Source: Bacteroidales bacterium
GTDB lineage: Bacteria > Bacteroidota > Bacteroidia > Bacteroidales > WCHB1-69
Length of the DNA stretch: 64,000 nt
Direction: 5' to 3'
NCBI GenBank assembly: GCA_038240835.1
Contig: JBBRGJ010000001.1
Coordinates: 3,776 to 67,775 of the forward strand
Shown here: piece by piece, positions 4,170 to 57,000 of the stretch
Layout: every line of letters starts with the position of its first letter
How positions within the stretch are numbered: position 1 is the stretch's first letter
Notes under the pieces: model-generated
What the model was told of the DNA's origin: nothing
Databases searched by the model: none
The model's input: the letters and a program-made list of their open reading frames with translations, nothing else
Translations under genes and position numbers: made by a program

Positions 4170-4676
4170 AGTATTGTTATTTCTTAATTCTGTCTTCTTG
4201 CATTTTTCTTCTTCCTTTGTGAAACTTTGTGCCTCCTTTGTCTACCTAGTATAATGGTAGATAAATGTTACTTCGTGGCACAGCATAAAGTTTTTATTAG
4301 TTGCACTTTTGGCTTCTTTTTTGTCACAAAAATCGATTGCTTCGCCTCAATTTTTCCGCCAAAAAATACAATTTATTTTCCATCTCTGGACCCGGGCGTT
4401 GCCCGAGCCTTATATAAGCTGGGCACTTCGACTTAGCTCAGCACACCGCTTTCAGCCCGTTTATCCTTCACTAGGGGACTAATTTGCCCCACTGTCCCGA
4501 TAATTATCAAGAGCAGTAAAGTTTCTAATTATAAAAGACTTCATATTTCTTACTTCTATATTCTATATTCTTGCTTCTTCTTTTTCAGTCTCGCTTCGCG
4601 CACTCATCACTCATCACTTCTTCTTCTTCAGTTTCACAACAAAAAATCATTTAACTAACATTTCAAAAAATTATTC
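4170..4676. repeat. modular intergenic repeat block A
   Basis: Contains ctttgtg-type module 4211-4240 and inverted hairpin module 4240-4266. Also a reverse-oriented cacttcgac..gctcag module near 4424-4446, cttacttct-type runs 4541-4580 and tctcgcttcgcg/catcactcatcac 4588-4618. Confidence 0.8.
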
Positions 4677-4684
4677 TAAATTTG
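4677..4684 (+). promoter_or_regulatory. Bacteroidota -7 box TAAATTTG upstream of wtpA
   Basis: Exact match to the TAnnTTTG consensus, 49 nt before ATG 4733. Confidence 0.45.
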
Positions 4685-4732
4685 TCATCAATTACCGATA
4701 TGTTTATTTTTACATGTCATAAATACTTGAAA

Positions 4733-5722
4733 ATGAAGAAATACAACACAGTTTTTATTAAAGGATTGATTTCTATTCCGCTCCTTGTGATGATTTTAAT
4801 CTTTTTTTCCAGTTGCAAACCAACAAAAAAAACGGACGATCTTTCGGGCGATCTGATTATCTTCCATGCAGGCAGTCTGTCGATGCCGTTGAAGGAGATT
4901 GCCGTTGAATTTAAAAAGGAATATCCCAACGCAAATATACTGTTTGAAGCGGCTGGAAGTGTCGAAAGTGCTCGTAAGATTACCGAATTAAACAAACCTT
5001 GTGATGTGATGCTCTCTGCTGATTATGCCGTCATTGATAAAATGTTGGTTCCCAAATATGCCGATTGGAATATTAAGTTTGCCTCGAATGAAATGGCCAT
5101 CGTCTTTTCCGAAAAATCAAAACGTAGTGGCGAAATAGATTCTGCAAATTGGATGGATGTTTTACTTGATAAGTCGGTTAAAATTGGTCGCTCCGACCCA
5201 AATTCTGATCCCTGTGGCTATCGGACTGTTTTGGTGGCTAAGTTGGCGGAATCATTTTACAAAAAAGCTGGATTAGCCAACCAATTGATGAACAAAGATC
5301 GGGAGAATATTCGTCCCAAAGAGACTGATTTGTTGGCTTTGTTAGAGACCAATACCATCGATTATATTTTCTTGTATCGTTCGGTGGCGGTTCAGCACAA
5401 CTTGAAATTTATCACTTTACCCGATCAAGTGAACCTTAAAAGTTCTGAATTTGAGGATTTATATAATAACGTTTCAACAAATATTAATGGAAAAAAACCT
5501 GGTGAAACCTACGAGCAAGTGGGAGAACCCATGGTGTATGGGGTCACAATATTGAATAATGCTCCCAATCGGAAATTAGCACTCGCTTTTGTCGAATTTC
5601 TGCTCACAAGCGACAAAGGCATGGCAATCATGGCAAAACTCGGTCAACCATCGGTGGTGCCTTCCTCTACATTTACCTTTGATAAAATTCCGGAAGAGTT
5701 GAAACGTTTTGCAAAGAAATAA
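4733..5722 (+). CDS. wtpA: tungstate/molybdate ABC transporter substrate-binding lipoprotein, WtpA type
   Basis: Motifs FHAGSL, EAAGS, DPNSDPCGYR and VYGVTILNNAPN match the WtpA-type oxyanion binder as I recall it. The lipobox FFSSC follows the internal ATG at 4733. The TTG at 4682 lies inside a promoter box. Confidence 0.7.
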   Translation: MKKYNTVFIKGLISIPLLVMILIFFSSCKPTKKTDDLSGDLIIFHAGSLSMPLKEIAVEFKKEYPNANILFEAAGSVESARKITELNKPCDVMLSADYAVIDKMLVPKYADWNIKFASNEMAIVFSEKSKRSGEIDSANWMDVLLDKSVKIGRSDPNSDPCGYRTVLVAKLAESFYKKAGLANQLMNKDRENIRPKETDLLALLETNTIDYIFLYRSVAVQHNLKFITLPDQVNLKSSEFEDLYNNVSTNINGKKPGETYEQVGEPMVYGVTILNNAPNRKLALAFVEFLLTSDKGMAIMAKLGQPSVVPSSTFTFDKIPEELKRFAKK

Positions 5723-5794
5723 AACTTACTATAATTCTACTTTTAATTGCACTCGTGAGAGTAGGAAAATTACCTCTTTTTTAGCTTTTTTGGC

Positions 5795-5915
5795 GAAGTC
5801 TTGATTTTTTGGTTACTTTTGTTCGTAGAATTTTTATAATATAATGAACTCACGCTTTCGCCCCTTAAAAAGAACGGGGCTCAGTTGTATCAAGACAAAA
5901 GTGACACTAAAAAAG
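5795..5915. repeat. repeat modules inside the wtpA-wtpB spacer
   Basis: gtcttgattttttggttacttttg (5799-5822) and caagacaaaagtgacactaaaaa (5891-5913). The latter recurs at 55328-55350. Confidence 0.65.
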
Positions 5916-6017
5916 AAATAACTTCGGAGTAAATTGTGTTACGCTTTTTTGAAAAATTCTTGTCCTAATGATAATTCCTTGCGGTTTTAAGGAAACAGGT
6001 TAACTACAAAAAAATTA

Positions 6018-6803
6018 ATGATTAAAAAAATAGACACATTAAGTTTAATATTCACCTTTTTGGCGGGGTTGCTCTTGTTGTTTATAATTGCACCCGTTTT
6101 CGGAATGTTCTTATCAACCGCTCCCGTTGAGGTGTTTGATGTAGCTAAAGATGCGGAAGTACAGCGTAGTGTTGGTCTAACTTTATGGACATCTATGTTC
6201 GCCACACTGTTATTTTCTATTGGTGCAATTCCTTTGGCATATTTGCTGGCGCGAAAGAAATTTCCTCTCCGAAAGTTGCTCATTGGGATCATCAATATAC
6301 CTGTAATTATTCCACACTCTGCTGCCGGAATTGCTTTGTTAGGACTGGTTTCTAGAGATACTGTATTGGGCAAATTTGCCGAATCAATCGGTATTAGTTT
6401 TGTAAATCACCCCGCCGGAATTGTCATTGCAATGGCGTTTATCAGCATTCCGTATTTGATTAATTCTTCCATTGATGGGTTTAATAATGTACCCGAAAGA
6501 CTAGAGTTAGTGGCGCAGAATCTCGGTGCATCTAAGTCGAGGGCATTTTTCACCATCGCTCTGCCATTGGCTTGGCGCAATATTCTTACTGGACTGATAA
6601 TGATGTGGGGACGTGGATTGAGCGAATTTGGTGCTATTGTAATTATTGCCTATCACCCAATGGTTACTCCTGTGATGATTTTTGAACGATTTAACTCCTA
6701 TGGACTCGCTTATGCACGACCAGTTACCGTTCTTTTTATCATTATATGCCTGACTATTTTTGTTGGATTAAATTACCTCTCTAAAAGACGTCGAAATGCT
6801 TAA
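6018..6803 (+). CDS. wtpB: tungstate/molybdate ABC transporter permease
   Basis: 261 aa, 5-6 TM helices, binding-protein-dependent permease loop (SKSRAFFTIALPLAWRNI). Overlaps the ATPase gene by 8 nt. Confidence 0.75.
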   Translation: MIKKIDTLSLIFTFLAGLLLLFIIAPVFGMFLSTAPVEVFDVAKDAEVQRSVGLTLWTSMFATLLFSIGAIPLAYLLARKKFPLRKLLIGIINIPVIIPHSAAGIALLGLVSRDTVLGKFAESIGISFVNHPAGIVIAMAFISIPYLINSSIDGFNNVPERLELVAQNLGASKSRAFFTIALPLAWRNILTGLIMMWGRGLSEFGAIVIIAYHPMVTPVMIFERFNSYGLAYARPVTVLFIIICLTIFVGLNYLSKRRRNA

Positions 6804-7851
6804 ATTAGAAAATGTATGTAAATCTTTTAAAGAGTTTTCACTCAACAACGTTACTCTTTCGGTTGAGAAGGGCGCTTATTTTATGCTGATTGGAAGTTCG
6901 GGTTCGGGCAAAACTCTATTGTTAGATATTATTGCTGGATTAAACAATGCCGATAGTGGAACCATACTTGTCAACGGCACCAATGTAAATCTTCTGCCAA
7001 TTCAAAAACGAAATGTTGGGTTAGTCTATCAAAATCAAACTTTATTTCCTCATATGTCTGTGTATGAAAACATTGCTTATCCGCTAAAATGTAAAAAGGT
7101 TGACAAAAAATCAATTTCTAACATAATCCACGACATTGCAGTTGAAACAGAAATTGGTCATCTACTTTTGCGCCGTATTCAGGGACTTTCGGGAGGAGAA
7201 ATACAACGAGTTACCATAGCACGTGCATTGGTTAACAAACCAGATGTTTTGCTTTTAGACGAACCCTTGTCAATGCTCGATGTTCAGTTGAAAAGAGGAG
7301 TGAGCTCGCTGTTGAGAAAATTAAATCAGCAGGGACAAACCATCGTGCATGTCACCCACGACTACGAAGAAGCCCTTTCCTTAGCCAATACCATTGGAAT
7401 TATAGAAAAAGGGACACTTATTCAAACGGGAACAATCAAAGAAGTGCTTCAATATCCGAAATCCGAGTTTGTGGCCAATTTTGTGGGAATAAAGAACTTC
7501 TTCCACGGGAAAATTAAAGAAAAAACACAAAATCTTGCTGTTTTCGACTCGAATGGTGTAATCTTTCAAGTAGAAACCACTTCCAATATCGATGCAAAAG
7601 GTTTCTTAGTAGTGGATGCAAATAATATTGTTGTTTCTCATGAACCGATTTCGTCATTGTCCCCCAACACATTTGAAGGAACAATAGCTGAGGTTTTTCC
7701 AACCAGAAATGGAGTTGAACTAAAGATTGATATAGGTATAGAAATAATTGCACAAATACCCACACACTCATTCGAAAACCTTCCTTTTAAGACAAACTCA
7801 ACCGTCTGGATAACCCTAAATCCCAATGAAATAAGATTTTCAGAGCAATAA
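6796..7851 (+). CDS. wtpC: tungstate/molybdate ABC transporter ATP-binding protein with C-terminal TOBE/Mop-like domain
   Basis: Walker A GSSGSGKT, signature LSGGEIQR, Walker B LLLDEP. The C-terminal ~120 aa look like a TOBE domain. Confidence 0.8.
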   Translation: MLKLENVCKSFKEFSLNNVTLSVEKGAYFMLIGSSGSGKTLLLDIIAGLNNADSGTILVNGTNVNLLPIQKRNVGLVYQNQTLFPHMSVYENIAYPLKCKKVDKKSISNIIHDIAVETEIGHLLLRRIQGLSGGEIQRVTIARALVNKPDVLLLDEPLSMLDVQLKRGVSSLLRKLNQQGQTIVHVTHDYEEALSLANTIGIIEKGTLIQTGTIKEVLQYPKSEFVANFVGIKNFFHGKIKEKTQNLAVFDSNGVIFQVETTSNIDAKGFLVVDANNIVVSHEPISSLSPNTFEGTIAEVFPTRNGVELKIDIGIEIIAQIPTHSFENLPFKTNSTVWITLNPNEIRFSEQ

Positions 7852-7861
7852 TTTGAATGTA

Positions 7862-8232
7862 CTTGATTTCTTATATTCTTGTTACTTCGTTTCACCACTA
7901 AGGCACTTAGAGCACTTAGGAACATTTATCTAACAGCTTGCTGGTAGACTAAGACTTCTGACTTCTTTCTTCTCTTCTTCTTCTTCTTCCTTTGTGAAAC
8001 TTTGTGCCTTCTTTGTGTTACTTCGTGTTATAGCATAAACCTTTCAGCTGGGACACAAAAGACACAAAGAATACACAAAAGACACAAAGAAGATTTATCT
8101 AACAGCTTGCTAGGAAGACTAAGTTCACTAAGAATCATTTATCTACCAGCTTGCTGGTAGACTAAGACTTCTTAATTCTTACTTCTGTATTCCCTCTTCT
8201 TTTCACGTTTCACGGAAAATCGTTTCACTTTC
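7862..8232. repeat. modular intergenic repeat block B
   Basis: Three copies of atttatcta(a/c)cagcttgct(a/g)g(g/t)a(a/g)gactaag (7924-7953, 8093-8123, 8137-8166). Also the ctttgtg/cacaaag hairpin 7986-8092, cttaattcttacttctgtattc 8167-8192 and ttttcacgtttcacggaaaatcgtttcac 8200-8228. Confidence 0.85.
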
Positions 8233-8245
8233 TTGAAAAAAAGAC

Positions 8246-8253
8246 TACTTTTG
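8246..8253 (+). promoter_or_regulatory. -7 box TACTTTTG upstream of moeA
   Basis: TAnnTTTG match 19 nt before ATG 8272. Confidence 0.45.
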
Positions 8254-8271
8254 TACTTAAAACAAAAACGG

Positions 8272-10684: not shown

Positions 10685-10685
10685 T

Positions 10686-11615: not shown

Positions 11616-11657
11616 TCTTTGAAAGCCAATTGACAATAATATAAAAGTGCATATTTT

Positions 11658-14570: not shown

Positions 14571-14752
14571 AAAAAGATAAGCTTTCTGGGTGAGTTATGG
14601 ATCTTCTGGTTCGTGTAGTTTATCCAAAAAAGTCTTCATTGTATAAACGTAAAATGGATTTCTGTTTTTGAGAGAAAACAATGAATATCCTTTTACTTGC
14701 AGATTAATTGTTTTAAAAATAGTTGGGCAAACCAAACAGGGAAAAAATGTGT

Positions 14753-15544: not shown

Positions 15545-15551
15545 TATAGAA

Positions 15552-16286: not shown

Positions 16287-16299
16287 ATTCAAGTTCAAC

Positions 16300-16625
16300 A
16301 CTGAGACATTTATCTACCAGCTTGCTAGGTAGATTTATCTAACAGCTTGCTGGTAGACTAAGATTTCTGTATTTTTCTTCCTTTGTGAAACTTTGTGAAA
16401 CTTTGTGTCTTCTTTGTGTCACTTTGTGTAATAGCATAAACTTTTCAGCTATGCCACAAAATACACAAAGAAGGCACAAAAGACACAAAGACCACTTTTT
16501 TCTTACTTCTTACTTTTTATTTCTTATTATTTCTTACTTCATTTCACGTTTCACTTTTCACGTTTTGTTCACTGAGCCTGTCGAAGTGCACCTTCTTCTT
16601 CTTCTTCCTCTTCCTCACTTCTATT
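16300..16625. repeat. modular intergenic repeat block F
   Basis: Hairpin module copies 16308-16332 and 16333-16362. Also the ctttgtg/cacaaag hairpin 16377-16494, cttactt runs, ttcacg runs and tcactgagcctgtcgaagtgcac 16569-16591. Confidence 0.85.
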
Positions 16626-16661
16626 TTAATGTTAATATTTCAACCTAAACACATTTTTTCG

Positions 16662-16669
16662 TAAATTTG
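16662..16669 (+). promoter_or_regulatory. -7 box TAAATTTG upstream of topB
   Basis: TAnnTTTG match 20 nt before ATG 16689. Confidence 0.45.
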
Positions 16670-16688
16670 TCAAAATTGAAAGTCTATA

Positions 16689-19001: not shown

Positions 19002-19860
19002 CAATTGAACGCGGATTTTTTTGGGGAATAGAGATAGCAGAGAACGCGGATGACGCGGATTTCTTATGATGAACGCGGATTTCTTTTTTTGGATGTTTGA
19101 GGATTTTTAGATAGCAATTGAACGCGGATGACGCTGATTTCTTATGATTAACGCGGATTTTTTTTTGAATGGGCACAAGTTGATCAAAGGTTCTTCGCTA
19201 TTTTGGTGTTTGCCTGCACTCAGATAATCAGATCACTATTTCGCCACTAAGCCATTTATCTACCAGCTTGCGAGGTAGACCAAGATTACTTAAGTTTTTT
19301 TGTCACACTCATTCTCCGCGGCGAAGTGAAGTGTCTCCACCCAAGGCTCTTCTTTATTCTTAATTCTGTATTCTTACTTCTTTCTTTCTTCTCCTTCTTC
19401 TTTTCACCTTTCACGGAAAACCGTTTCACCTTCTTATTTCTTACTTCTGTATTCTTTCTTCTTTCTTCTTCGTTTCACTCCCGATAGGGTTCAGGGTTCA
19501 TGGTGCAGGGTTCAGGGTTTGGTTTTAGTTCTACTTTATTACACGTTCTTCTTGTTTATTGAATTCTTCCTTCCTCTTCTTCTTCTTCTTCATTTCACCT
19601 TTGGTCACTGAGCCTGTCGAAGTGCACTTTTCACGTTTTACCACTAAGGCATTTATCTACCAGCATGCTAGGTAGACTAAGAACACTAAGATTCATTTAT
19701 CTACCAGCCTGCTAGGTAGACTAAGATTTCTTTTCTTCTGTATTCTTTCTTCTTTTTCTTTTTGTCACACTGAGCCTGTCGAAGTGCACCTCCCACCCTT
19801 TGGTCACTGAGCCTGTCGAAGTGCACCTTTCACCTTTCACCTTTCACCCTTCCTCTTTCC
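18996..19860. repeat. modular intergenic repeat block G (865 bp, between convergent topB and the M14 gene)
   Basis: aacgcggat units 18996-19166; hairpin module at 19254-19284, 19651-19681 and 19695-19725. gtcac(ac)tgagcctgtcgaagtgcac at 19604-19627, 19764-19789 and 19803-19826. Also tcagggt heptads 19487-19517 and ttcac / cttactt runs. Confidence 0.85.
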
Positions 19861-22899: not shown

Positions 22900-22924
22900 G
22901 ATCTTAAAATTAAAATTATTTCAA

Positions 22925-22932
22925 CAAAGATA
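22925..22932 (-). promoter_or_regulatory. -7 box TATCTTTG (minus strand) upstream of the AAA ATPase gene
   Basis: The reverse complement of caaagata matches TAnnTTTG, about 25 nt before ATG 22899. Confidence 0.4.
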
Positions 22933-22972
22933 CTAAATTGTATGATATAAAATACAAATTTAGACAAAAAAT

Positions 22973-23024
22973 GTATTCTGTAAAATACAATTTGTTCTGT
23001 TTTTTGTATTCTGTAAAATACAAT
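22973..23024. repeat. two exact 19-bp direct repeats gtattctgtaaaatacaat, 33 bp apart
   Basis: 22973-22991 and 23006-23024. Each has an internal gtatt..aatac dyad. They lie 75-125 bp upstream of the ATPase start. Confidence 0.8.
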
Positions 23025-23111
23025 CTGTAAATATCAATTCAATAATACTCTAAAATTGGAACCAAAACAAGCCAAAAGATGTCGGGCCCGAAGAGGGGAG
23101 GCGGGGGCGGA

Positions 23112-23207
23112 GTCTGTAAAGTCGAAAGTCTATCAAGTAAAAAGTTTGTAAAGTAAAAAGTCTATCAAGTAGAAAGTTTATAAAGTAGAAAGTCTATAAA
23201 GGAAATA
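23112..23207 (+). repeat. tandem repeat: six 16-bp units (three 32-bp units)
   Basis: gtctgtaaagtcgaaa gtctatcaagtaaaaa gtttgtaaagtaaaaa gtctatcaagtagaaa gtttataaagtagaaa gtctataaaggaaata. Confidence 0.85.
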
Positions 23208-24001
23208 GCCATCAACAGCCATTAGAGATGGCCGATCATAAAGTTAGTAGAGATTTTTTACCAATTTAAAAAAAATACCAAATCATGAAAAGCACCCTCA
23301 GAGCCACACTCTATAGACTTTAAGGACTTTACAGCCTTTCCACTTTAGGTTTTACTACCATTTGAGTGGAAGAGAGCACAAATATCAAAATTGTTATTTA
23401 AAAAATGTCATGCTGAGATTTCATCCAATAAAAATTTGGAAATAAAGGGTTGATGACAGTGAGAAAATTTACCGCTATTTGGGGCTTAGAATAAGCATTG
23501 TGGCTGTTTTAGCGAGCGTCATACTGTCACGATAGCTATCGTGATAGTCGAAGTATTAAAGAAAGAGGTTTATGAAAGCACTTTTTACAGTCCTTCGATT
23601 AACTCAGGAAGACCAGAAAAAGCAACATTCCAATTCTGTCATTGGTAGTTTATCGAAGTCGACATAGTGAGAATATGAAGAAGAATAATAACCGCAGAGC
23701 TCGCTGAGAGAAGGAAAAAAGTTGAGGACGCAGAGGCGCGAAGCGTGGAAAAGAAGAAAAGGAATACAGAATTAAGAATACAGAAGTAAGAAATCTAAGT
23801 CTACCTAGCAAGCTGGTAGATAAATGTCTTAGTGGTGTCTTTCCTTCTCTTCTCTTTTGTACCTTTTGCTACTTTTGTGGTTCAAAAAAAAAACAAAAAG
23901 CGCGAAGCGCCACCGGAAAACCCCAGCATCGCTTCGCGCCCTTTATAAACTTTACAGACTTTATAGACTTTAAGAACTTTCCACTTTAAGGACTTTATTC
24001 C
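23208..24001. repeat. modular intergenic repeat block H (rest of the 1.1-kb ORF-free region)
   Basis: Reverse-oriented modules: ctatagactttaaggactttacag 23311-23334, gaatacagaagtaag 23761-23793, hairpin module 23795-23825 and ctttataaactttacagactttatagactttaag 23941-23975. Also gtcat(g/a)ctg variants at 23407 and 23519. Confidence 0.8.
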
Positions 24002-24628: not shown

Positions 24629-24835
24629 AAGTATATTTTTTTACAAAAGTACGTTATTTTTTATCAGCTTCTGAAGTGTATGTGCTTTTTTATATATCTC
24701 CAATTTAATAAAAGTTCCTAATCTTCTATGGTATTGATTAAAGATTTTTCATGATAACCTTCTTTAGAATTCCCTTTATTAGAATGTAAATACCTAATCT
24801 GTTTATTTTTTTTTGTTTAAAGTGTTTTATTTTTG

Positions 24836-24843
24836 TATCTTTG
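24836..24843 (+). promoter_or_regulatory. -7 box TATCTTTG upstream of the T9SS cargo gene
   Basis: TAnnTTTG match 27 nt before ATG 24870. Confidence 0.45.
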
Positions 24844-24869
24844 TGTACTTATTTTAAAAATTTCATGTT

Positions 24870-26849
24870 ATGAAAAAAATATTACAATTATTGTCTATTT
24901 TTCCAATATTGTCTCTTTTCCTATTATTTAACGGTTCTGATATAATTGCTCAAACTACGAAGATTCAGCCAGTTCAATGTGGCTATTTGATGCCGGAAAT
25001 AAAAACCACAATTAAAGCTATTGCCGTCACAGGAGCTACTGGTTACAGATTTCGAGTGAGTGATGGAGATACATATTTAGAAATCATTGATAAAACTGTA
25101 AATAATTTTAAGTTAACACAACTGTTGACTGCGCCCAAATACAATACATCTTACATTATTGATGTGGCTGTTAAAACAACAGGAAGTTACGGCAGTTACG
25201 GAGAAGCATGTATTTTGACAACTCCTTCTGCTCCCCTTACAAAAATTCAAGAAAGTCAATGTGGAATAACTCTTTCGGATATAAATACCTTCGTTTATGC
25301 CGATGCAATGTGGTATATCGACATGTACCGATTTAAAATAGATGATGGTGTAAATCCGCCTCAAACTTATGAAACTACAGGACGGACATTTAAATTTCCA
25401 TTTTTCCCCTCCTTTGAATATAACACAACTTACAGTGTCTCAGTTGCGTTAAAAGCTGGTGGCATTTGGGGCTCTTATGGCCCAGTTTGTTCGGTGAAAA
25501 CTCCTTGTCAGAATTTAAAAGTATTTGCAGATACTGATGGTGATACCTTTGGAGATCTATCTAATTTTATTATTTCTTGTAATGGTGTTCCCGAAGGTTA
25601 CGTCCTCGATTCTTTAGATTGTGATGACGCAGATATGACAATTTATCCAGGTGCTCCTGAAATTTGTGGTGATGGAAAAGACAATAATTGCAATAATCAA
25701 ATTGATGAGTCAGGTTGTTCTGTTATTACCACTTTAACTGAAGATGTTTGTGGTTCAACTTTTGAGTTTTTAAATACTACTTGGATTACAGCAAATCCGG
25801 TTGAAGGAGCTGAACAATATGAATTTAAAATAACTGCAGGGGCGTATGAAGCAACTGCCTTTGATGATTTGCAAGCGACCAAAGCTCGATTCCCTCAATT
25901 TCTCGATTATCAATATAATACAACTTATGATGTTCAGGTTCGTGTTAAATTCAATGGTGTTTGGGGCGCATATTCTGTCCCTTGCTCAATTACTACTACT
26001 GATCATCCTTATACCAACATTGAATCACCTACCTGCAATTCTACATTGCCATTAATAACTACATACATTTATGCAAAAACGGTATCTGATGTTACGGCAT
26101 ATCGATTTAAAGTTAATGATGGAGTTCATTCAGAAGAGGTGTTAGAGAAAACGGTTAGAACATTTAATATTCCAATGTTAGCTAATTGGAATTATGGAGA
26201 AACTTATCAGATCTCTGTAGCCGTTAAATTTAGAGATGTTTGGTATCCATACGAAAATATTTGTCAATTATCATCTCCTACTGTTCCAACTCCAGTAGTG
26301 CAAACGAGTCAATGTAATTCTATATTAGCAAAACCTTCTACTACTATTAAATCAACTTTAATAACTGGTGCAACGGATTATAGATTTGAAATTAGCTTTG
26401 GTGATTCTACCCAAATTGTGGATAAATCTATTAATGAGTTCAAACTCACAGAGAAAGCAACTGCGCCCAGAAATGGTGTTGTATACACAATTAGAGTTGC
26501 CGCAAAAGTTTTCAATGTTTGGGGCGATTTTGGGAGTGCCTGTAGCGTTACTACTCCTGGCGCCAAAAACGAAGCTTTAACCGTTGTTGAAAATGAAAAA
26601 CACGAACTGTCTGCTATCGTTTCACCAAACCCTTCTAGTGATAAATTTACGATTTCGATTAATTCAGATATTTCAGGAAGTGTAGACGTATTGGTTACAA
26701 ATATTCTTGGTCAGAAAATTGAAAGTTTTTATCTGACGGTTTCAGATTTGTCAAAACTAACCTTTGGTGCAAACTATGAAAAAGGAATATACTTAGTTAC
26801 CATTCGCCAAGGTGCACATAGAAAAGTATATAAAATAGTCAAACAATAG
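24870..26849 (+). CDS. T9SS-secreted protein with five ~88-aa Cys-bracketed repeats and a central MopE-like Cys/Asp-rich motif
   Basis: Signal peptide. Five repeats of the pattern C..(T/A)GAT.YRF..DG...YNT.Y.V.V..K..G.WG.YG..C..TTP. Central DTDGDTFGD..DCDDAD..YPGAPEICGDGKDNNCNNQIDE. C-terminal Por sorting domain (VSPNPSSDKFTI...GIYLVTI..KIVKQ). Confidence 0.8.
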   Translation: MKKILQLLSIFPILSLFLLFNGSDIIAQTTKIQPVQCGYLMPEIKTTIKAIAVTGATGYRFRVSDGDTYLEIIDKTVNNFKLTQLLTAPKYNTSYIIDVAVKTTGSYGSYGEACILTTPSAPLTKIQESQCGITLSDINTFVYADAMWYIDMYRFKIDDGVNPPQTYETTGRTFKFPFFPSFEYNTTYSVSVALKAGGIWGSYGPVCSVKTPCQNLKVFADTDGDTFGDLSNFIISCNGVPEGYVLDSLDCDDADMTIYPGAPEICGDGKDNNCNNQIDESGCSVITTLTEDVCGSTFEFLNTTWITANPVEGAEQYEFKITAGAYEATAFDDLQATKARFPQFLDYQYNTTYDVQVRVKFNGVWGAYSVPCSITTTDHPYTNIESPTCNSTLPLITTYIYAKTVSDVTAYRFKVNDGVHSEEVLEKTVRTFNIPMLANWNYGETYQISVAVKFRDVWYPYENICQLSSPTVPTPVVQTSQCNSILAKPSTTIKSTLITGATDYRFEISFGDSTQIVDKSINEFKLTEKATAPRNGVVYTIRVAAKVFNVWGDFGSACSVTTPGAKNEALTVVENEKHELSAIVSPNPSSDKFTISINSDISGSVDVLVTNILGQKIESFYLTVSDLSKLTFGANYEKGIYLVTIRQGAHRKVYKIVKQ

Positions 26850-26898
26850 TTTAGGGCATGAAAAAGGAGGTAGATACCTCCTTTTTCATGCCCTAAAC
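26849..26898. terminator. 24-bp perfect inverted repeat between convergent genes (probable bidirectional terminator)
   Basis: gtttagggcatgaaaaaggaggta / tacctcctttttcatgccctaaac with a 2-nt centre. It starts in the last base of the stop codon of the T9SS cargo gene. Confidence 0.6.
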
Positions 26899-26932
26899 TA
26901 CATGGATTTCCTGAATAAAATCTCGAATTCCT

Positions 26933-39420: not shown

Positions 39421-39453
39421 AATAATCTGGGAGATTTAACCTCCCAGATTATT
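39421..39453 (-). terminator. 13-bp-stem hairpin plus T-rich tail between the ompA-like gene and upxY
   Basis: aataatctgggag / ctcccagattatt with a 7-nt loop. On the minus strand it is followed by tttaatataat. Confidence 0.55.
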
Positions 39454-47490: not shown

Positions 47491-47494
47491 CACC

Positions 47495-49024: not shown

Positions 49025-49345
49025 AGGATTCAGGGTGCAGGGTTTAGGGTTCAGGGTTTCAGGGTTCAAGGTTCAGGGTCAATGGTTTAAGGTTCATGGT
49101 GCAGGGTTTGGTTTTAGTTCTACTTTATTACACGTTCTTCTTATTTATTGTATTCTTTCTTTCACTTCTTGGTTTTGTCACACTGAACAAAGTGAAGTGT
49201 CTCTTCTTACTTCTTAATTCTTTCTTTCTTCTTTTCACGTTTCACTTTTCACAACTCAAAAACACAAAGTCCTCTATAAACTACTTCTTACTTCTTACTT
49301 CTGTATTCTTTCTTCTTCTCACTCGTCACTTCTTCTTTCATATTC
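49025..49345. repeat. modular intergenic repeat block L
   Basis: tcagggt-type heptads 49029-49110; a segment 49091-49160 near-identical to 19495-19570. Also gtcacactgaacaaagtgaagtgtctc 49177-49203 plus cttactt and ttcac runs. Confidence 0.85.
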
Positions 49346-49358
49346 ACATTTTAAAACT

Positions 49359-51065: not shown

Positions 51066-51079
51066 TTTTTGTGTCAATT

Positions 51080-51262
51080 TAGTACAAAGAAAGAAGAGGT
51101 ATCAAAGAAAGAATGTGACGAGCTTCGCTCCGTTACTCCCGAAAAAACAGAAATCTCTGATTTCATTTTTTTTCGAGGATCCACGAAAAAATAACAATCC
51201 GCCAGTTGGCGGATTTATTTTTCGGGACCCGTTACCCCGTCACCTCTTCGTACTTCGTTATT
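51080..51262. repeat. modular intergenic repeat block M
   Basis: gtgacgagcttcgctccgttac (complement orientation of block O/P modules). The cccgaaaaaa..ttttttcgaggatccacgaa..aatccgccagttggcggatt..tttttcgggacccgttacc unit is shared with block N. Confidence 0.8.
51196..51223. terminator. hairpin aatccgcc-agtt-ggcggatt with flanking A/T runs (bidirectional terminator candidate)
   Basis: 8-bp GC-rich stem extended by cgaaaaaataac / tatttttcg. It lies between the convergent LysM and yraN genes. Confidence 0.55.
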
Positions 51263-51278
51263 TTTTCTTTAAAATCAG

Positions 51279-51641
51279 TTACATCCCAGCCTGAAAAGCA
51301 TCCTTTATAATTTTGATATCCTGTTGTTTGGAGTTGTACAACACTGAAACAATATCAAAACGAAACTCTTCCATTATGTCATACTTTTCGGCATAGTGAT
51401 TGGCTGCACGAATTAGAAAAAACTGTTTCTTTTTGGTGACAAAAGTTTCGGGCTCTCCAAAATAGTTTGTTTGACGAGTTTTTACTTCTACCAAGACAAT
51501 CATATTATCCTCCTTCGCAATGATGTCTACTTCATCGTTTCCGTATCTCCAATTGGTGTGTAAAATTTCATATCCAAGTTTCCTTAGTTCGGCTAAAGCA
51601 AGCTCTTCGCCCGCTTTTCCTAAATCGTTGTGTTCTGCCAT
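51279..51641 (-). CDS. yraN: YraN family (UPF0102) endonuclease-like protein
   Basis: GEELA..L...GY.IL..NWR....EVDIIA......VLVEVKTR pattern; 120 aa. Confidence 0.85.
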   Translation of the reverse strand: MAEHNDLGKAGEELALAELRKLGYEILHTNWRYGNDEVDIIAKEDNMIVLVEVKTRQTNYFGEPETFVTKKKQFFLIRAANHYAEKYDIMEEFRFDIVSVLYNSKQQDIKIIKDAFQAGM

Positions 51642-51644
51642 CGG

Positions 51645-52550: not shown

Positions 52551-52639
52551 CTTTATCTATTTATTTAGATGCAAATATACATTTTATTTATCCTAAATGA
52601 ATTAATTGTAATTTAAAAAAACGAACTTAGCTAGAAGAA

Positions 52640-52925
52640 AGAGGTGCCAAAGTGACGAGTGACGAGTGACAGAGCGGAGTCTCGCTTTTCGCCGGTCTCG
52701 CTTCGCGGTCACTCGTCACCTGTCACTTCCCTCCATCGTCGCTTTCCCGAAAAAAAGAGCAGCCTAATGGCTGATCGTTTTTTTTCGAGGATCCACGAAT
52801 TTTTACAAAATCTCTCCGCCGCGGCGGATTAAAATTCGGGACGCGGTCACTCCCGAAAAAACAATCCGCCAGTATGTGGATTTATTTTTCGGGACCCGTT
52901 ACCTTCCTTCATCGTCACTTTTTCC
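52640..52925. repeat. modular intergenic repeat block N
   Basis: gtgacgagtgacgagtgac 52653-52671 paired with gtcactcgtcacctgtcac 52709-52727. 14-nt perfect palindrome tccgccgcggcgga 52815-52828. cccgaaaaa / tttttcggg hairpin units are shared with block M. Confidence 0.8.
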
Positions 52926-52992
52926 TACAAACAATGAACATTGCTTTGTTAGCAAAAAAAAACAAAATACAATATTGAAAAACAAAACACGT

Positions 52993-53000
52993 TAATTTTG
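52993..53000 (+). promoter_or_regulatory. -7 box TAATTTTG upstream of exbB
   Basis: TAnnTTTG match 29 nt before ATG 53029. Confidence 0.45.
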
Positions 53001-53028
53001 CATCATCAAATATTAAATTTAAAAGTAT

Positions 53029-53745: not shown

Positions 53746-53766
53746 TTTATTTAAAATAGGATAGTT

Positions 53767-54183
53767 ATGGCATTAAAAACCAGAAATAAGAGAAATATTG
53801 AGTTTAGTACCGCTTCTATGTCGGATTTGGTGTTTTTATTACTCATTTTTTTTATGATTACATCGACATTGGTGAGTCCAAATGCAATTAAACTTTTGTT
53901 GCCAAATAGCACCGGTCAAGTTAAATCTCCAAAGACCATGAACGTTTATGTGAGGGCTCCCGATGAATTTTATGTGGAAGAAAATCGTGTGCCTTTGGAA
54001 GAACTTTCTTTAAAGATTCAAGAAAACTTGGTTGGTCAACCTGATGATGCAACCGTTGTTTTACGTTCCGACAAAGAAGCAGCTGTTCAGTTGGTTGTAA
54101 ATGTAATTGATGCGGTGAACAAAATAAATGAACAGTACCAAAAAAAGTACAAAGTTATTTTGGCAACAAATCCACAGAAATAA
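53767..54183 (+). CDS. exbD: biopolymer transport protein ExbD/TolR
   Basis: N-terminal SMSDLVFLLLIFFMITST TM helix; 138 aa. Confidence 0.85.
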   Translation: MALKTRNKRNIEFSTASMSDLVFLLLIFFMITSTLVSPNAIKLLLPNSTGQVKSPKTMNVYVRAPDEFYVEENRVPLEELSLKIQENLVGQPDDATVVLRSDKEAAVQLVVNVIDAVNKINEQYQKKYKVILATNPQK

Positions 54184-54219
54184 CGTTAAACCTTATAGAT
54201 CAAATCAAATTAGTGCAAT

Positions 54220-54924
54220 ATGTTAAAGATAAGCAATCAACATAAGGGAATTATTGGAACCGTGGTGTTTCATTGTCTTTTATTGCTCTGTTTCTTTTTT
54301 ATGGGGTTTAAAACTCCATTACCTTTGCCCGAAGAGATTGGTACAGAGATAGATATGGGCGGTGGTGGCGGTGGTTCATCCAGTTCTGATGTAAGTACAC
54401 CTGCATCATCCAGTCCCGAAGATTATGCTACCCAAAATTCTGAAGAATCGACAGCATTGACTAATAATAAAAATAAAGTCATCAGAAAAAATGTCGATAA
54501 CAAAGTGGTAGAACCCAAAGTGGATGAACGTTTTATCTATAAAAAATCAAATAATAATGGTTCTGGCAATGGGAACGGCAATGGAAATGGTCCTGGCACT
54601 GGTCCCGGAAGTGGTCCTGGTGATGGAGGCGGAAATGGTCCCGGTCACGGTCCTGGCAATGGTCCTGGATTTTCTTTGAATGGAAGAAGTGCCAAAAGTT
54701 TGCCCGCTCCCGATTTTAGCAACATACAAGGAAAGGTAGTCGTTAGAATTAAAGTAGATCCAAATGGGAAAGTGATTGACGCAGAAGCAATTTCAAAAGG
54801 TTCAACCATTGCAAATAATAAAGTTTGGAAAAAATGTGAAGAATATGCAATGAGAGCAAAATTCAGTGCAAAATCTGATGCGCCGGATGTACAGCAAGGA
54901 ACGATTACTTATATTATTGAGTAA
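54220..54924 (+). CDS. tonB: TonB-family energy transducer with a Gly/Asn/Pro low-complexity linker
   Basis: N-terminal TM anchor, (NG)n(PG)n linker, C-terminal TonB_C-like beta region (GKVVVRIKVDPNGKVIDAE). Confidence 0.7.
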   Translation: MLKISNQHKGIIGTVVFHCLLLLCFFFMGFKTPLPLPEEIGTEIDMGGGGGGSSSSDVSTPASSSPEDYATQNSEESTALTNNKNKVIRKNVDNKVVEPKVDERFIYKKSNNNGSGNGNGNGNGPGTGPGSGPGDGGGNGPGHGPGNGPGFSLNGRSAKSLPAPDFSNIQGKVVVRIKVDPNGKVIDAEAISKGSTIANNKVWKKCEEYAMRAKFSAKSDAPDVQQGTITYIIE

Positions 54925-54950
54925 TAGTTTTGTAGATATATTTCTAAAAT

Positions 54951-54991
54951 AAAAAAATGCTCAAGTATCGAAATATTTGAGCATTTTTTTT
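54951..54991 (+). terminator. intrinsic terminator after tonB
   Basis: aaaaaaatgctcaa - 12-nt loop - ttgagcatttttttt. Confidence 0.65.
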
Positions 54992-55009
54992 ATGAAATCT
55001 TTTTAGGGG

Positions 55010-55300
55010 GAGAAGTGAACAGGTGAGTGAAGCTCGTTCTGAAAGAGGTGACGGAGTAACGGGGTAACGGGGTAACGGAGCGAAGCTCGTCTGAAGAAGT
55101 GGCCGAGTGGCGGAGTAGCCGAGTGGCGGAGTGGAGCGAAGCTCGACTGGCCTCGCAAGAGTCTCGCTTCGCGCCCGGACTCGCTTGCGCATCGTCGCTT
55201 CGCGCCCGGACTCGCTTGCGCATCGTCGCTTTGCGGTCACTCCGTTACTCCGTAGCCCCGTCACCTTCTTCACTCGTCACCCCGTTACTTTTTTCTCAAA
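55010..55300. repeat. GC-rich modular repeat block O (upstream of folC)
   Basis: ggtaacgg octads 55047-55080. gccgagtggcggagt units. About 108 bp (55096-55203) are ~94% identical to 56789-56895. A perfect 31-bp tandem duplication lies at 55164-55225, with complementary gtcactccgttac / gtcacc modules on the right arm. Confidence 0.85.
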
Positions 55301-55316
55301 GTATTATTTTTTTTTC

Positions 55317-55324
55317 TACTTTTG
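55317..55324 (+). promoter_or_regulatory. -7 box TACTTTTG upstream of folC
   Basis: TAnnTTTG match 105 nt before ATG 55429. Confidence 0.4.
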
Positions 55325-55428
55325 CAGCAAGACAAAAGTGACATTAAAAATAGGATCTTAGAAGGAAAAAAGGTTCATCTTTTTCGACAAAATATTTTTT
55401 TTAAAAAGAGTAAATCAATTGCTTAATT

Positions 55429-56703
55429 ATGAATTACAAAGAAACGTTAGAATATTTATTTAATAGTTTGCCCATGTTTCATCGGGTTGGAGCTGCAGCT
55501 TATAAGGCAAATTTGGATAATACGTATAAGTTGATGGATTTAACGGGACATCCTTACGAGAAATTTAAATCAATCCATGTTGCTGGAACTAATGGAAAGG
55601 GCTCTAGTTCTCACTTTCTTGCTTCCATCATGCAGGAGCAAGGGCTGAAAACTGGGTTGTACACATCGCCTCATTTAAAAGATTTTCGCGAAAGAATTAA
55701 AATTAATGGGGTGATGATTTCCGAAGAAGAAGTTGTTGGTTTTGTGGAGAAATACAAGTCTAATTTTGAAGAAATTCAACCCTCTTTTTTTGAAATGACT
55801 GTGGCCATGGCTTTCTCTTATTTTGCTAAAGAAAACGTAGATATTGCAATTATAGAAACGGGCTTAGGTGGTCGTTTAGATTCAACAAATGTCATTCATC
55901 CACTGCTCTCTATCATCACAAATATTGATTTTGATCATACCGCTTTGTTGGGAAATACATTGGTTGAAATTGCCGGTGAAAAAGCTGGAATTATAAAGAA
56001 AAATGTGCCAGTGGTGATTGGAGAATCTTCGGTAGAAACTGATTCTGTTTTTATACAAAAATCAATTATTGAAGATGCTCAAATTGTATTTGCTGACAAA
56101 GTAAATTTGGTGGAGGATGTGGAGATGATAAATCCTTTTTTAATGAATTTTAAATTTGGAAATTATAATCTTTCTAGTCCACTAGCTGGAAAGTATCAGC
56201 TAAAAAATTTGGTCACCGTATGTACCGCCATCGATCTGTTGAATAATTGTACTGACATTCAAATCTCTCCAAAAAACGTGGAGTTAGGAGTTCGTAATGT
56301 GATCAAAAATACACAATTTGTTGGAAGATGGCATCGATTGAATGAGAGTCCTTTAGCCATTGCTGATACAGGTCATAATCCTCATGGTTTGTCTATTGTG
56401 TTAAAACAATTGGAGGAATTGCAAGCAAAAACACTTCATTTTGTCCTGGGAATGGTCAACGATAAAGATATTGATTTGGCGTTGTCGATGATGCCAAAAA
56501 ATGCAGTTTATTATTTTTGCAAAGCAGATATTCCAAGAGGATTAAACCAAGAAATTTTGGCACAAATGGCTCAGAAGTTTGGATTAAATGGCTCGTGTTA
56601 CTCTTCTGTGAATGAAGCATATCAAGTTGCCTTAAAAAATGCAAAACCAGAAGATGTCGTCTTTGTCGGAGGAAGTACGTTTACAGTTGCTGAGGTGGTT
56701 TGA
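55429..56703 (+). CDS. folC: folylpolyglutamate synthase / dihydrofolate synthase
   Basis: HVAGTNGKGSS P-loop and Mur-ligase organisation. Confidence 0.9.
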   Translation: MNYKETLEYLFNSLPMFHRVGAAAYKANLDNTYKLMDLTGHPYEKFKSIHVAGTNGKGSSSHFLASIMQEQGLKTGLYTSPHLKDFRERIKINGVMISEEEVVGFVEKYKSNFEEIQPSFFEMTVAMAFSYFAKENVDIAIIETGLGGRLDSTNVIHPLLSIITNIDFDHTALLGNTLVEIAGEKAGIIKKNVPVVIGESSVETDSVFIQKSIIEDAQIVFADKVNLVEDVEMINPFLMNFKFGNYNLSSPLAGKYQLKNLVTVCTAIDLLNNCTDIQISPKNVELGVRNVIKNTQFVGRWHRLNESPLAIADTGHNPHGLSIVLKQLEELQAKTLHFVLGMVNDKDIDLALSMMPKNAVYYFCKADIPRGLNQEILAQMAQKFGLNGSCYSSVNEAYQVALKNAKPEDVVFVGGSTFTVAEVV

Positions 56704-57000
56704 AAGAGGTGACGAGTGACGAGTGACGAGTGACGGAGCGAAGCTCGACTGAAGAGGTGACGGGGTAACGGAGCGAAGCTTATCTGAGGAAGTGGCCGAG
56801 TTGCGGAGTAGCCGAGTGGCGGAGTGGAGCGAAGCTCGACTGGCCTCGCAAGAGTCTCGCTTCGCACCAGACTCCCTTGCGCATCGTCGCTTCGCGGTCA
56901 CTCGTCACTCGTCACCTGTCACTTTCCTCCATCGTCGCTTCGCGGTCACCCCGTTATTTCGTCACCCCGTTACCTTCTTGCTCCGTTTCTTCGAAGTCAT
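56701..57000. repeat. GC-rich modular repeat block P (downstream of folC)
   Basis: gtgacga heptads 56709-56734 are mirrored by gtcactcgtcactcgtcacc 56897-56916. It shares the ~108-bp core with block O and cgcttcgcggtcactcgtcacctgtcactt.cctccatcgtcgctt with block N. Confidence 0.85.

Follow-up and report, generated by a model that had tools for sequence, protein, structure and literature searches.

The long intergenic spacers in a 64,000-nucleotide stretch of a Bacteroidales genome (GenBank assembly GCA_038240835.1, contig JBBRGJ010000001.1; hereafter the window) carry non-coding repeats of three interlocking kinds: tandem arrays of 7–9 nt units, small hairpin modules (a, e, h), and a double hairpin, module (i). 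The explanation that we favour, with a probability of about 0.6, is that these spacers are accumulation sites for lineage-specific, non-coding repeats which are mostly selfish or neutral. The window has a G+C content of 35.8% and contains housekeeping genes, including those for a TonB-dependent receptor, modABC, molybdopterin synthesis, topoisomerase III, guaA, guaB, exbBD, and a folC-like product; the best named relatives of the topoisomerase III are from Bacteroidales metagenome-assembled genomes (MAGs). The original prediction, made from the letters of the sequence, had described the spacers as a shuffled, combinatorial architecture of modules, lettered (a) to (l), that was not recognised as a named family. 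The modules are real, but they do not make up a single unprecedented architecture, which resolves into the three kinds named above.

Motif counts placed the modules at or near the positions where they had been predicted, in approximately the predicted copy numbers and almost solely in long spacers, and the same families were also recovered by independent repeat finders. Module (a) occurs ten times (4240(-), 7924, 8093, 8137, 16308, 16333, 19254, 19651, 19695, and 23797(-)), and module (e) has four exact cores (16573, 19609, 19771, and 19808) besides degenerate copies. All ten matches to module (c), at 2 mismatches or fewer, are in spacers, as are nine of the 13 matches to module (k), while modules (g), (h), (j), (d), and (l) have 10, 4, 5, 2, and 2 matches, respectively. 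A blastn comparison of the window with itself gave 55 significant pairs, all in long spacers except for three ordinary terminator palindromes (26847–26900, 39421–39453, and 54951–54990); the identity between repeat copies in these matches is about 72–97%, mostly 80–93%. Words of 12 nt that are common to another spacer, on either strand, cover 40% of the spacer bases, compared with 3.7% in second-order Markov copies of the spacers and 2.0% in non-overlapping coding chunks of equal size. The corresponding coverage for words of 14 nt is 32%, 0.5%, and 0.2%. The heptamer GCGAAGC/GCTTCGC is found 17 times in 5.5 kb of spacer, against an expectation of 0.5, and four times in the remaining 58 kb; GCGAAGC is presented as an exceptionally stable DNA mini-hairpin in a 2026 review (PMC13037366).

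The eleven spacers singled out initially had been put at roughly 5 kb, or 8% of the window, while their coordinates add up to 4,494 nt, or 7.0%. One of the eleven, 5795–5915, has to be removed from the set, as it shows 5% coverage at k = 12 and shares motif (l) alone. Spacers 14571–14722 and 24629–24869, which lay outside that set, were examined by length and composition only. The spacers contain no credible coding sequence, as had been stated: the open reading frames (ORFs) there are short and of low complexity, and paralogous copies differ by non-triplet indels. The remark that module (e) resembles a motif which produces ghost ORFs in many Bacteroidota annotations also fits, since ghost ORFs in the window read ..FDRLSVT../..LRQAQCD.. 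and a hairpin with the same conserved loop is present in other Bacteroidales loci. No described RNA family matches the modules: a scan of Rfam gave no hit at the gathering score and chance hits only at E ≤ 5, these being long hairpins paired with miRNA precursor models plus a weak match to rimP (E value 1.9). The exclusion of CRISPR likewise stands, since module (a) occurs at most twice in tandem, at a spacing of 25 or 44 nt, and the intervening sequence is not unique but recurs at other places; the scan of flanking genes in the window revealed no cas domains. The spacers between 19 and 24 kb were also considered as a replication origin or terminus, and this was rejected because the GC skew merely tracks gene orientation and shows no switch.

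The arrays consist of head-to-tail units of 7–10 nt (AGGGTTC, GTGACGA, CACCTTT, TTTCACG, CACTCAT, GGTAACGG, AGTGGCSG, CTTTGTGNNN, and CTTTATAGA). Tandem Repeats Finder (TRF) reported 37 arrays with a period of 5–12 in the window. Those of period 7 that were picked out by inspection are in spacers, and most arrays are imperfect and look decayed. Each small hairpin lies within its own cognate heptad, which is the sequence at the foot of the hairpin. Thus module (a), TCTACCAGC-TT-GCT(A)GGTAGA, is hosted by CACTAAG units and module (e), CACT-GAGCCTGTCGA-AGTG, by CACCTTT/TTTCACS units; module (i) is hosted by GTGACGA or CCGTTAC units. The correspondence between heptad and hairpin foot suggests that arrays may nucleate next to hairpins. 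The small-hairpin class also includes GAGCGAAGCTC/GCGAAGC mini-hairpins. Modules (b), (g), and (k) and the GC-rich composites owe their long, imperfect hairpins to forward arrays whose complements are placed tens to hundreds of nucleotides away. Folding of whole spacers into long hairpins, which had been proposed in general terms, holds for six spacers (z -4 to -7.7) but not for 19002–19860 and 49025–49358 (z about -1.5 to +2.4). Both are pyrimidine-rich and unstructured; the plus strand of the former is G-poor and no more structured than its shuffles, and the latter folds worse than its shuffles.

What had appeared as shuffling is largely accounted for by composite units of 100–225 nt that have diverged by gain and loss of heptads and by nesting. 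Four pairs of such units were identified by blastn: 55063–55270 and 56756–56979 (225 nt, 84% identity), 7917–8090 and 16326–16491 (174 nt, 83%), 8093–8203 and 19651–19756 (112 nt, 84%), and 19486–19581 and 49075–49170 (96 nt, 86%). In pairwise alignment the cores reach up to about 92% identity, in the GC-rich pair. Copies differ by a 17-nt insertion of GTCACTC heptads, by the number of CTTTGTG units, and by the neighbouring modules. The mosaics are placed 3' of stop codons (once 3' of the ordinary terminator at 54951–54990) and 5' of the promoter of the next gene, and therefore occupy the zone between transcription units. The consensus of promoters of the Bacteroidetes type is TAnnTTTG, and compact boxes resembling it are found near start codons in the window. 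Mosaics are excluded from the inside of an operon-like block at 26900–47400, about 20 kb of tightly packed or overlapping minus-strand genes with a G+C content of 0.29–0.35, in which the longest spacer is 104 nt and repeat modules number zero.

Module (i) is present in the window as a two-fold symmetric double hairpin of 87–97 nt. Its core, TTTTCGAGGATCCACGAA, is common to two copies in the window and two in a syntenic locus of a relative, L001 (loci outside the window are given as L numbers). A scan with TTTKCGAGGATSCWCGAA against one genome per species yielded at least 110 stretches; the boundaries of 89 distinct copies could be set, and the alignment comprises 62 copies of full length. Among the matches listed, most are in MAGs of Bacteroidales or other Bacteroidota, often with several copies per genome; those in other phyla mostly do not have the element termini, the single exceptions being a Chlorobiota MAG, a Cloacimonadia MAG, and L056. 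The layout is TCCCGAAAA, a variable hairpin, TTTTCG(A)GGA followed by TCC(T)CGAAAA, a second variable hairpin, and TTTTCGGGA. The usual length is 85–94 nt, with minimal forms of 48–51 nt, and monomers exist. In the 62 aligned copies, the end positions of the terminal inverted repeats TCCCGAAAA...TTTTCGGGA are invariant or nearly so: C4, G5, and A6 vary in few sequences, and one position of the 3' end covaries (G in 40, C in 19).

The results from RNAalifold for the 62 copies indicate a fold of two hairpins, with compensatory changes at 14 of the 28 pairs and 97.2% of cells paired, compared with 81.3% in shuffles. The covariation score is 0.385, as opposed to 0.104 for shuffles (none of 500 reaches the observed value) and 0.02–0.10 for slid partners. 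The covariation is almost purely Watson-Crick, with 19 G.U cells among 1,721 (1.1%), and the covariance model scores the two strands of the window copies nearly equally (73 and 69 bits; 57 and 47 bits). The scarcity of G.U and the near-equal strand scores imply that both strands can form the structure, which is the signature of a DNA palindrome and not of a strand-specific RNA. A cloverleaf-like fold, in which the outer 5' and 3' parts would pair around a central palindrome, was rejected because the halves vary independently, e.g., CGCAAAA/TTTTGCG in one half and TGC..GCA in the other. The repeats also nest: in L011 the loop of one module (i) hairpin contains an e-type hairpin, and module (i) is found inside heptad arrays in L067, in L056, and in the window. 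A GC-richer variant, TCCCGATCCCGGTCCCCGGGATCGAGGATGCTCGATCCGACAAGTCGGATCGGCA, is located at L094:7211–7500, inserted a few bases from a standard copy into the same tRNA-Met fragment; the family thus includes subtypes with other sequence in place of the A and T runs. In five loci (L026, L030, L038, L063, and L078) the contig ends within about 150 nt of a double-hairpin copy, which indicates that such repeats break short-read metagenome assemblies. A scan of IMG/VR with the core of module (i) gave ten hits, all by chance and none with TCCCGAAAA termini; nothing there points to a phage as vector.

In at least 11 loci (L008, L018, L027, L032, L052, L069, L075, L091, L094, L100, and L109) the sequences on either side of the element, read together, give the 5' part of a tRNA gene, and on the same strand an intact, identical tRNA gene follows 3–317 nt downstream. 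The genes concerned are those for tRNA Ala-GGC (twice), Arg-UCU, Pro-UGG, Pro-CGG, Leu-UAA, Leu-CAG, Val-UAC, and Met (three times). When the interrupted copy is set against the intact gene, the element alone proves to have been inserted, with zero bases duplicated or lost. The insertion point varies, after tRNA nucleotide 12–21, and is always in the D-arm; the element is also in a D-arm in L009, L030, L036, L038, L087, L092, L106, and L114. The interrupted tRNA copy spans nucleotide 1 to nucleotide 22–68, and a promoter-like box is upstream in most of the loci read. About a fifth of the element copies found are associated with a tRNA; the 64-kb window itself has no tRNA gene. The association suggests either structure-directed targeting of the D-arm combined with purifying selection, or an insertion that generates the duplication. 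The lack of a target duplication argues against a DDE-type MITE (miniature inverted-repeat transposable element) and is compatible with hairpin-directed, single-strand mechanisms. The earlier view that the modules do not look like MITEs bounded by terminal inverted repeats is not supported for module (i), which does have such repeats; target-site duplications are absent from the 11 tRNA-derived sites. Two other interpretations were discarded. Module (i) is not an intervening sequence of tRNA genes, as ARAGORN finds no tRNA after computational excision: what is interrupted is in each case a truncated 5' fragment, and the intact gene follows downstream. Nor are the heptad arrays stacked target-site duplications of module (i), given that the tRNA insertions occur without duplication and that in-phase array flanks follow trivially from the periodicity.

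Relatives of the source organism have the same kinds of module in different arrangements. In L001 (topoisomerase III 82% identical) and L003 (78%), the orthologous spacers hold the same kinds in different order and content, including runs of CATCAAAT, TTCAAATC, and ACTTTACAA, the e-type hairpin CCCT-GAGCGCAGTCGA-AGGG, TTTCACG runs, and module (i); the part conserved with the window is the promoter-proximal 30–60 nt only. A relative at 69% topoisomerase III identity has an ordinary spacer without modules. The expectation that module content and order differ between orthologous spacers was therefore borne out, as was the expectation that the repeats are not an artefact of one assembly: modules (d), (i), and (k) are found in syntenic relatives, and modules (c), (e), (g), (i), and (j) are found at 89–96% identity, in another order and orientation, in L056 (JBBRVS010000221.1, 972–1590). 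L056 is labelled as a Pyrinomonadales (Acidobacteriota) MAG; almost certainly, the contig was mis-binned and comes from a Bacteroidales organism closely related to that of the window. In 810 kb of sequence from other Bacteroidales, modules (a), (b), (c), (f), (g), and (h) have zero, one, or two matches, and are thus lineage-specific. A search of the JGI metagenomes with the module (a) query ATTTATCTAMCAGCNTGCT returned 25 hits, all by chance and none with the second hairpin arm, and module (a) appears confined to the source lineage in the collections searched. The e-type loop GAGC-N3-4-G(Y)CGA occurs in other Bacteroidales loci with six different complementary 4-bp stems (10 occurrences, 0.8 expected), and by this measure the e-type hairpin is older and wider than the lineage-specific modules. 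Short-period arrays amount to 10.8 bp/kb in about 95 element-bearing loci, compared with 4.1 in chance-hit loci of other phyla. Their periods are 7 (95 arrays), 8 (65), 9 (37), 6 (18), and 10 (9), which is not a coding pattern; some arrays have 16–35 units, and the motifs vary between genomes and even between loci.

In the scenario proposed here, the 7–9 nt arrays would expand and contract by replication slippage, possibly nucleated beside hairpins, and the small hairpins (a, e, and the mini-hairpins) would be dispersed together with their cognate heptad array as composite units. Module (i) would be a non-autonomous mobile DNA element that has spread through the Bacteroidales. The hairpin elements would spread by a precise, duplication-free mechanism, which is seen for module (i) at the tRNA loci and which may also apply to (a) and (e). 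The units would nest in one another and then decay, and nesting with decay would give the appearance of shuffled modules. They would survive only between transcription units, past the stops or terminators and before the nearby promoter of the next gene. The scenario agrees with the lack of coding sequences in the spacers and of a transposase among the flanking housekeeping genes that were scanned. Some copies have probably been co-opted, to judge from their sequence features: the distal hairpins of module (i) as bidirectional terminators, and the C-rich, G-poor sense-strand runs as loading sites for Rho.

A number of observations weigh against this scenario. Clustering of the ORFs around about 95 element copies revealed no recurrent transposase, and the only recurrent neighbour gene, at seven loci and none of them in the window, encodes a small GIY-YIG nuclease. 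The source species is a cluster of one in the collections, and the precise insertions were read at tRNA loci of other genomes. In four of four unambiguous spacers, module (c) and the pyrimidine-rich runs point the same way as transcription, which hints at selection at the level of the transcript and not at pure neutrality. Finally, the module (k) nonamer AACTTTAYR is conserved across genera, as is AAATC-NNN-GATTT in many module (i) hairpins, and either could mean that a protein is bound.

The GIY-YIG genes offer a different view of module (i). The ORFs encode 82–91 amino acids, match Pfam PF01541 (E values 1e-17 to 1e-19), and lie about 20–150 nt from the element (L032:3840–4100(-), L035:3769–4005(-), L036:5036–5281(-), L081:257–472, L087:368–469, L100:7547–7765, and L105:158–415). 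In L032 and L100 the ORF separates the intact tRNA from the interrupted copy. That of L100 has a frameshift; missing from the ORF-finder list, it was translated by hand over the frameshift for the Pfam scan. In L032 the unit of GIY-YIG gene, upstream region, and tRNA appears to be tandemly duplicated. Module (i) might be undescribed structure-directed mobile DNA that enters the loops of DNA hairpins, such as tRNA D-loops and repeat hairpins, without target duplication. Small free-standing GIY-YIG nucleases would mobilise it, or co-evolve with it, and would also make the promoter-bearing partial duplications of tRNA 5' ends. Stalling of replication at the hairpins would leave the heptad arrays as by-products, and these processes together would build the whole intergenic mosaic of the lineage. 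We regard this account as speculative and rather unlikely in its entirety. Phage T4 provides a precedent in the GIY-YIG endonuclease SegB, whose gene is located amid tRNA genes, a region in which it promotes segmental amplification (PMC2330249, PMC13096335). Both cases have a small GIY-YIG gene beside tRNA genes and segmental duplication of tRNA-region DNA; however, the present loci are in bacterial chromosomes and not in a phage, and the link of the nuclease to module (i) is one of adjacency alone, at seven loci outside the window. SegB is accordingly a precedent for the link between GIY-YIG nucleases and tRNA genes and not a demonstration of it here.

Some limited credence is due to the proposal that the mosaics are functional boundaries of transcription units, in which unstructured C-rich, G-poor runs load Rho, hairpins such as the distal stems of module (i), the long imperfect hairpins, and the GCGAAGC mini-hairpins terminate transcription or protect 3' ends, and the repetition results from selection for operon insulation. 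The sense-strand C/G ratio of the CT-rich spacers is 1.3–1.8, with 80-nt windows of up to 7–10, compared with 0.7–0.9 and maxima of 1.3–4.6 in coding DNA; these spacers are less structured than shuffles, the arrays begin directly past stop codons, and the orientation of module (c) noted above points in the same direction. Terminator-like hairpins with a GC-rich stem and a T run are found at 51196–51215, 52760–52773, 52815–52828, and 52863–52882, and no other sites of the region resemble bidirectional terminators as well as the GC-rich distal stems of module (i), which have A and T runs on either side; one of these stems is in a convergent spacer that has no other terminator. Within the family, however, the features of an intrinsic terminator are found only in the distal hairpins of the three window copies, most other members having weak, AT-only stems, and in other genomes module (i) separates an intact tRNA gene from a promoter, a position in which efficient termination would do harm. 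An ordinary terminator (54951–54990) already precedes one of the mosaics, compact terminators suffice without a mosaic at 26847–26900 and 39421–39453, and the orthologous spacers of relatives hold different modules or none. It is improbable that the arrays and hairpins are binding sites for nucleoid proteins, gyrase, or a dedicated repeat-binding factor that would organise supercoiling or chromosome structure, as has been proposed for bacterial interspersed mosaic elements (BIMEs). The fixed 7–9 nt length of the units, the two motifs conserved among genera, and the cruciform-prone palindromes with strongly negative fold z-scores on both strands would be explained, but array motifs differ among genomes and loci, most arrays look decayed, and no candidate protein was identified.

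That the modules are small structured RNA genes or processed RNA elements, acting in cis or in trans, we consider quite improbable. Strong secondary structure in six spacers, the covariation of module (i), and e-type hairpins with a conserved loop and a variable stem would be expected of such RNAs. Against this, Rfam holds no matching family, the covariation has the DNA palindrome signature described above, copies occur in both orientations relative to genes, and promoter-like boxes are not consistently associated with modules. An artefact of MAG assembly or binning is hardly credible: the window is from a MAG contig and at least five related contigs end near a module (i) copy, but the copies are diverged and not identical, assemblies made independently (L001/L002, L003, and L056) contain the same modules, and the flanking genes are intact and syntenic with those of relatives.

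Comparison with described systems indicates that the window is a new and rich combination of known repeat kinds and not a new kind. The microsatellite-like runs belong to a known class of intergenic repeats with units of 5–11 nt, among which heptamers predominate (PMC4679880, PMC4692102); the arrays of the window have units of this size, the period-7 arrays noted there are intergenic, and period 7 is the commonest across the related loci. The same papers attribute to Mrazek (2007) an excess of intergenic heptameric simple repeats in several phyla, tentatively ascribed to polymerase slippage. TAACTGA repeats occur in Beggiatoaceae, Cyanobacteria, and five Bacteroidetes, including Paludibacter, a member of the Bacteroidales, and other cases are the cyanobacterial heptanucleotide repeats and the GGGAATC/GGGGATT repeats of Xanthomonas and Nostoc (PMC4679880, PMC4692102). 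In Xanthomonas, G-rich heptamers are directly 3' of ORFs and some pairs are inverted repeats (PMC4692102). The window resembles these systems, known as long simple sequence repeats or short tandemly repeated repetitive sequences (LSSR/STRR), in having head-to-tail 7-nt units that are overwhelmingly intergenic and often just past stops, several heptamers per spacer, heptads with G3, and array length and content that vary between close relatives. It differs in mixing many heptads, octads, and nonamers, mostly imperfect, in the pairing of forward arrays with complements to form long hairpins, and in hosting hairpin modules.

BIMEs are defined as mosaics of small palindromes, with proposed roles in termination, mRNA stabilisation, and supercoiling (PMC3733652). 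Any resemblance to repetitive extragenic palindromes (REPs) and BIMEs had been denied; nevertheless, REP/BIME clusters (PMC3733652) are an arrangement of the same kind, and module (a), with its ten copies, and the recurrent e-type hairpins are extragenic palindromes of 20–40 nt in a mosaic. Like the REPs of Enterobacteria and Pseudomonas, they are small, imperfect, clustered, present in many copies, and variable in order and orientation. A 20–40 nt consensus tagged by GTAG or CGTC outside the stem, as in REPs, is not evident: the CTAC..GTAG of module (a) sits within the stem (TCTACC..GGTAGA) and is not a 5' tag, and CGTC in the (g) heptads is part of the repeat unit. The hairpins are, furthermore, embedded in heptad arrays, and the long stems of the window arise from inverted arrays and not from unique palindromes. 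No gene for a RAYT (Y1 HUH transposase) was found among the flanking genes scanned in the window, nor any recurrent transposase family near the 95 element copies. The neisserial intergenic mosaic elements are a comparable mosaic system. BrickBuilt, a MITE of Porphyromonas gingivalis, has an internal 23-nt minisatellite and a defined leader and tail (PMC4596501). It shares with the window the order Bacteroidales, an intergenic location, species specificity, and the combination of inverted-repeat ends with a tandem array, but no sequence similarity was seen, its period of 22–23 nt is absent from the TRF output for the window, and the window has many families with units of 7–10 and 16 nt. Module (i) is similar to the palindrome-associated elements of the IS200/IS605 type in its bulged hairpin ends, its precise and duplication-free insertion, and its hairpin-preserving covariation. 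It differs in that its hairpins are inverted copies of each other and not like-oriented left and right ends; no conserved tetranucleotide target was found, the flanks being diverse and the insertion point in tRNAs variable, and no Y1 transposase was found near the 95 copies. No description of the double-hairpin family, its D-arm preference, or its GIY-YIG neighbours was found in the literature, nor any match in Rfam, and the family is apparently undescribed.

The mosaics differ from spacer to spacer. Between the genes for the TonB-dependent receptor and modA (4167–4681, plus strand) are module (c) at 4183 and 4549, CTTTGTG at 4215 and 4225, a reverse module (a) with a different loop at about 4236–4266, a reverse e-type hairpin at 4412–4440, GCTTCGC at 4339 and 4593, (TTCTATA)n at 4554–4571, and (CACTCAT)n at 4601–4618; a promoter-like TAAATTTG adjoins the start codon. 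The spacer between modC and moeA (7852–8232, plus strand) has module (a) at 7924–7953, 8093–8123, and 8137–8166 within CACTAAG-type heptads, a CTT run, a long imperfect hairpin of (CTTTGTGNNN)n and (CACAAAGNNN)n at 7990–8090 (z -4.5/-4.1), module (c) at 8178–8192, and module (d) at 8202–8228; module (d) and the promoter are kept in L001. The spacer 5' of the topoisomerase III gene (16287–16688, plus strand) contains two copies of (a) at 16308–16362, a long CTTTGTG/CACAAAG hairpin at 16381–16491 that is 89% identical to 7990–8090, (CTTATTT)n at 16495–16536, (TTTCACG)n at 16538–16565, and module (e) at 16570–16592, and its promoter TAAATTTG at about 16655 is kept in L001. The convergent spacer between the genes for topoisomerase III and an M14 peptidase (19002–19860, plus strand) begins with AACGCGGAT arrays (module j, 19008–19171) and includes module (a) at 19254, 19651, and 19695, (c) at 19359, 19440, and 19731, (d) at 19403–19429, (AGGGTTC)n at 19486–19519, and (e) at 19606, 19768, and 19805 within (CACCTTT)n heptads. 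The largest spacer, between two minus-strand genes (22900–24001, minus strand), has 16-nt and 9-nt arrays of module (k) at 23111–23205 with complements at 23308–23347 and 23941–23998, degenerate e-type hairpins at 23519–23560 and 23592–23615, mini-hairpins of the GCGAAGC type at 23738, 23902, and 23931, and reverse (c) and (a) at 23762–23828, which are thereby co-oriented with the genes.

The spacer directly 3' of the guaA stop codon (49025–49358, plus strand) includes (AGGGTTC)n with G3 runs at 49025–49108, the 96-nt unit at 49075–49170 that is 86% identical to 19486–19581, a degenerate (e) at 49178–49199, and (CTTCTTA)n, (TTTCACG)n, and module (c) within 49203–49322. The (AGGGTTC)n arrays at 49025–49108 and 19486–19519 have at least four G3 runs on the sense strand, and the first begins at base 1 past the guaA stop. 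By analogy with the GGGAATC repeats of Xanthomonas (PMC4692102), they could form G-quadruplexes.

A full copy of module (i) at 51137–51227, with the arrangement TCCCGAAAAAA-hairpin-TTTTTTCGAGGATCCACGAAAAAA-hairpin-TTTTTCGGGA, scores 73 bits (E value 4e-15) with the covariance model. It is in the convergent spacer 51066–51278, amid CCGTTAC-type octads and next to a reverse module (h) at 51119–51137, and its distal hairpin at 51196–51215 is terminator-like on both strands. A second full copy, at 52745–52841 in the divergent spacer 52551–53028 (57 bits), belongs to a subtype with the AATTTT stem that L001, L015, L033, and L111 contain as well. It is followed by a monomer at 52851–52894, a single hairpin CCCGAAAAAA-AATCCGCC..GGATT-TTTTTCGGG, which has a weak score (13 bits) and is 92% identical to 51189–51236. 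The adjacent 52640–52744 (plus strand) forms an imperfect hairpin (z -7) from the arms (GTGACGA)n at 52651–52670 and its complement GTCACTCGTCAC at 52708–52725, which flank a GCTTCGC-containing sequence. The GC-rich (60%) composite palindrome at 55010–55300 (z -7.7) has a purine-rich half of (GGTAACGG)n, GAGCGAAGCTCG, and (AGTGGCSG)n, and a pyrimidine-rich half of CGCTTCGCG repeats and CCGTTAC/GTCAC units. It is 3' of the ordinary terminator at 54951–54990 and 5' of a promoter-like TACTTTTG at about 55315, and overlaps a ghost ORF (54944–55273, minus strand). Its second copy, at 56704–57000 (z -5.5), matches 55063–55270 over 56756–56979, is preceded by (GTGACGA)n at 56709–56735, and has the additional 17-nt GTCACTC-heptad insertion.

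Some further features are of a different nature. Motif (l), the 23-nt CAAGACAAAAGTGACAYTAAAAA, is found at 5891–5913 (plus strand) and otherwise only at 55328–55350, in the putative leaders of modB (6018) and the folC-like gene (55429). It is just 3' of a promoter-like TACTTTTG box at the folC-like gene and about 70 nt 3' of a similar box at modB. Motif (l) is probably a separate cis element, apart from the repeat mosaic, and may be a regulatory site. The spacer between modA and modB (5723–6017, 295 nt) contains a promoter-like box and a GC hairpin (cgcccc..ggggc), and has no match in Rfam, thus no molybdenum-cofactor riboswitch. Within the coding sequence 54220–54924, after exbB/exbD, a 12-nt periodic repeat resembling GGNGGNCCNGGN at 54553–54680 probably encodes a Gly/Pro/Asn-rich linker of a TonB-like protein, i.e., ordinary coding repetition and not mosaic.

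In practical terms, the mosaics yield ghost ORFs in annotation, the repeats can mislead binning, as with L056, and a covariance model is now available for a widespread double-hairpin element that is lacking in Rfam. About 7% of the window is given over to a repeat ecosystem comparable with BIMEs or the cyanobacterial heptamer arrays, in an uncultured lineage of the Bacteroidales. The main interest is in the double-hairpin family and its link with tRNA genes and GIY-YIG nucleases, which is located outside the window. If the association with D-loops and GIY-YIG genes is true, it would make hairpin-directed mobility of DNA, and the remodelling of bacterial tRNA genes, accessible in a new and tractable case.

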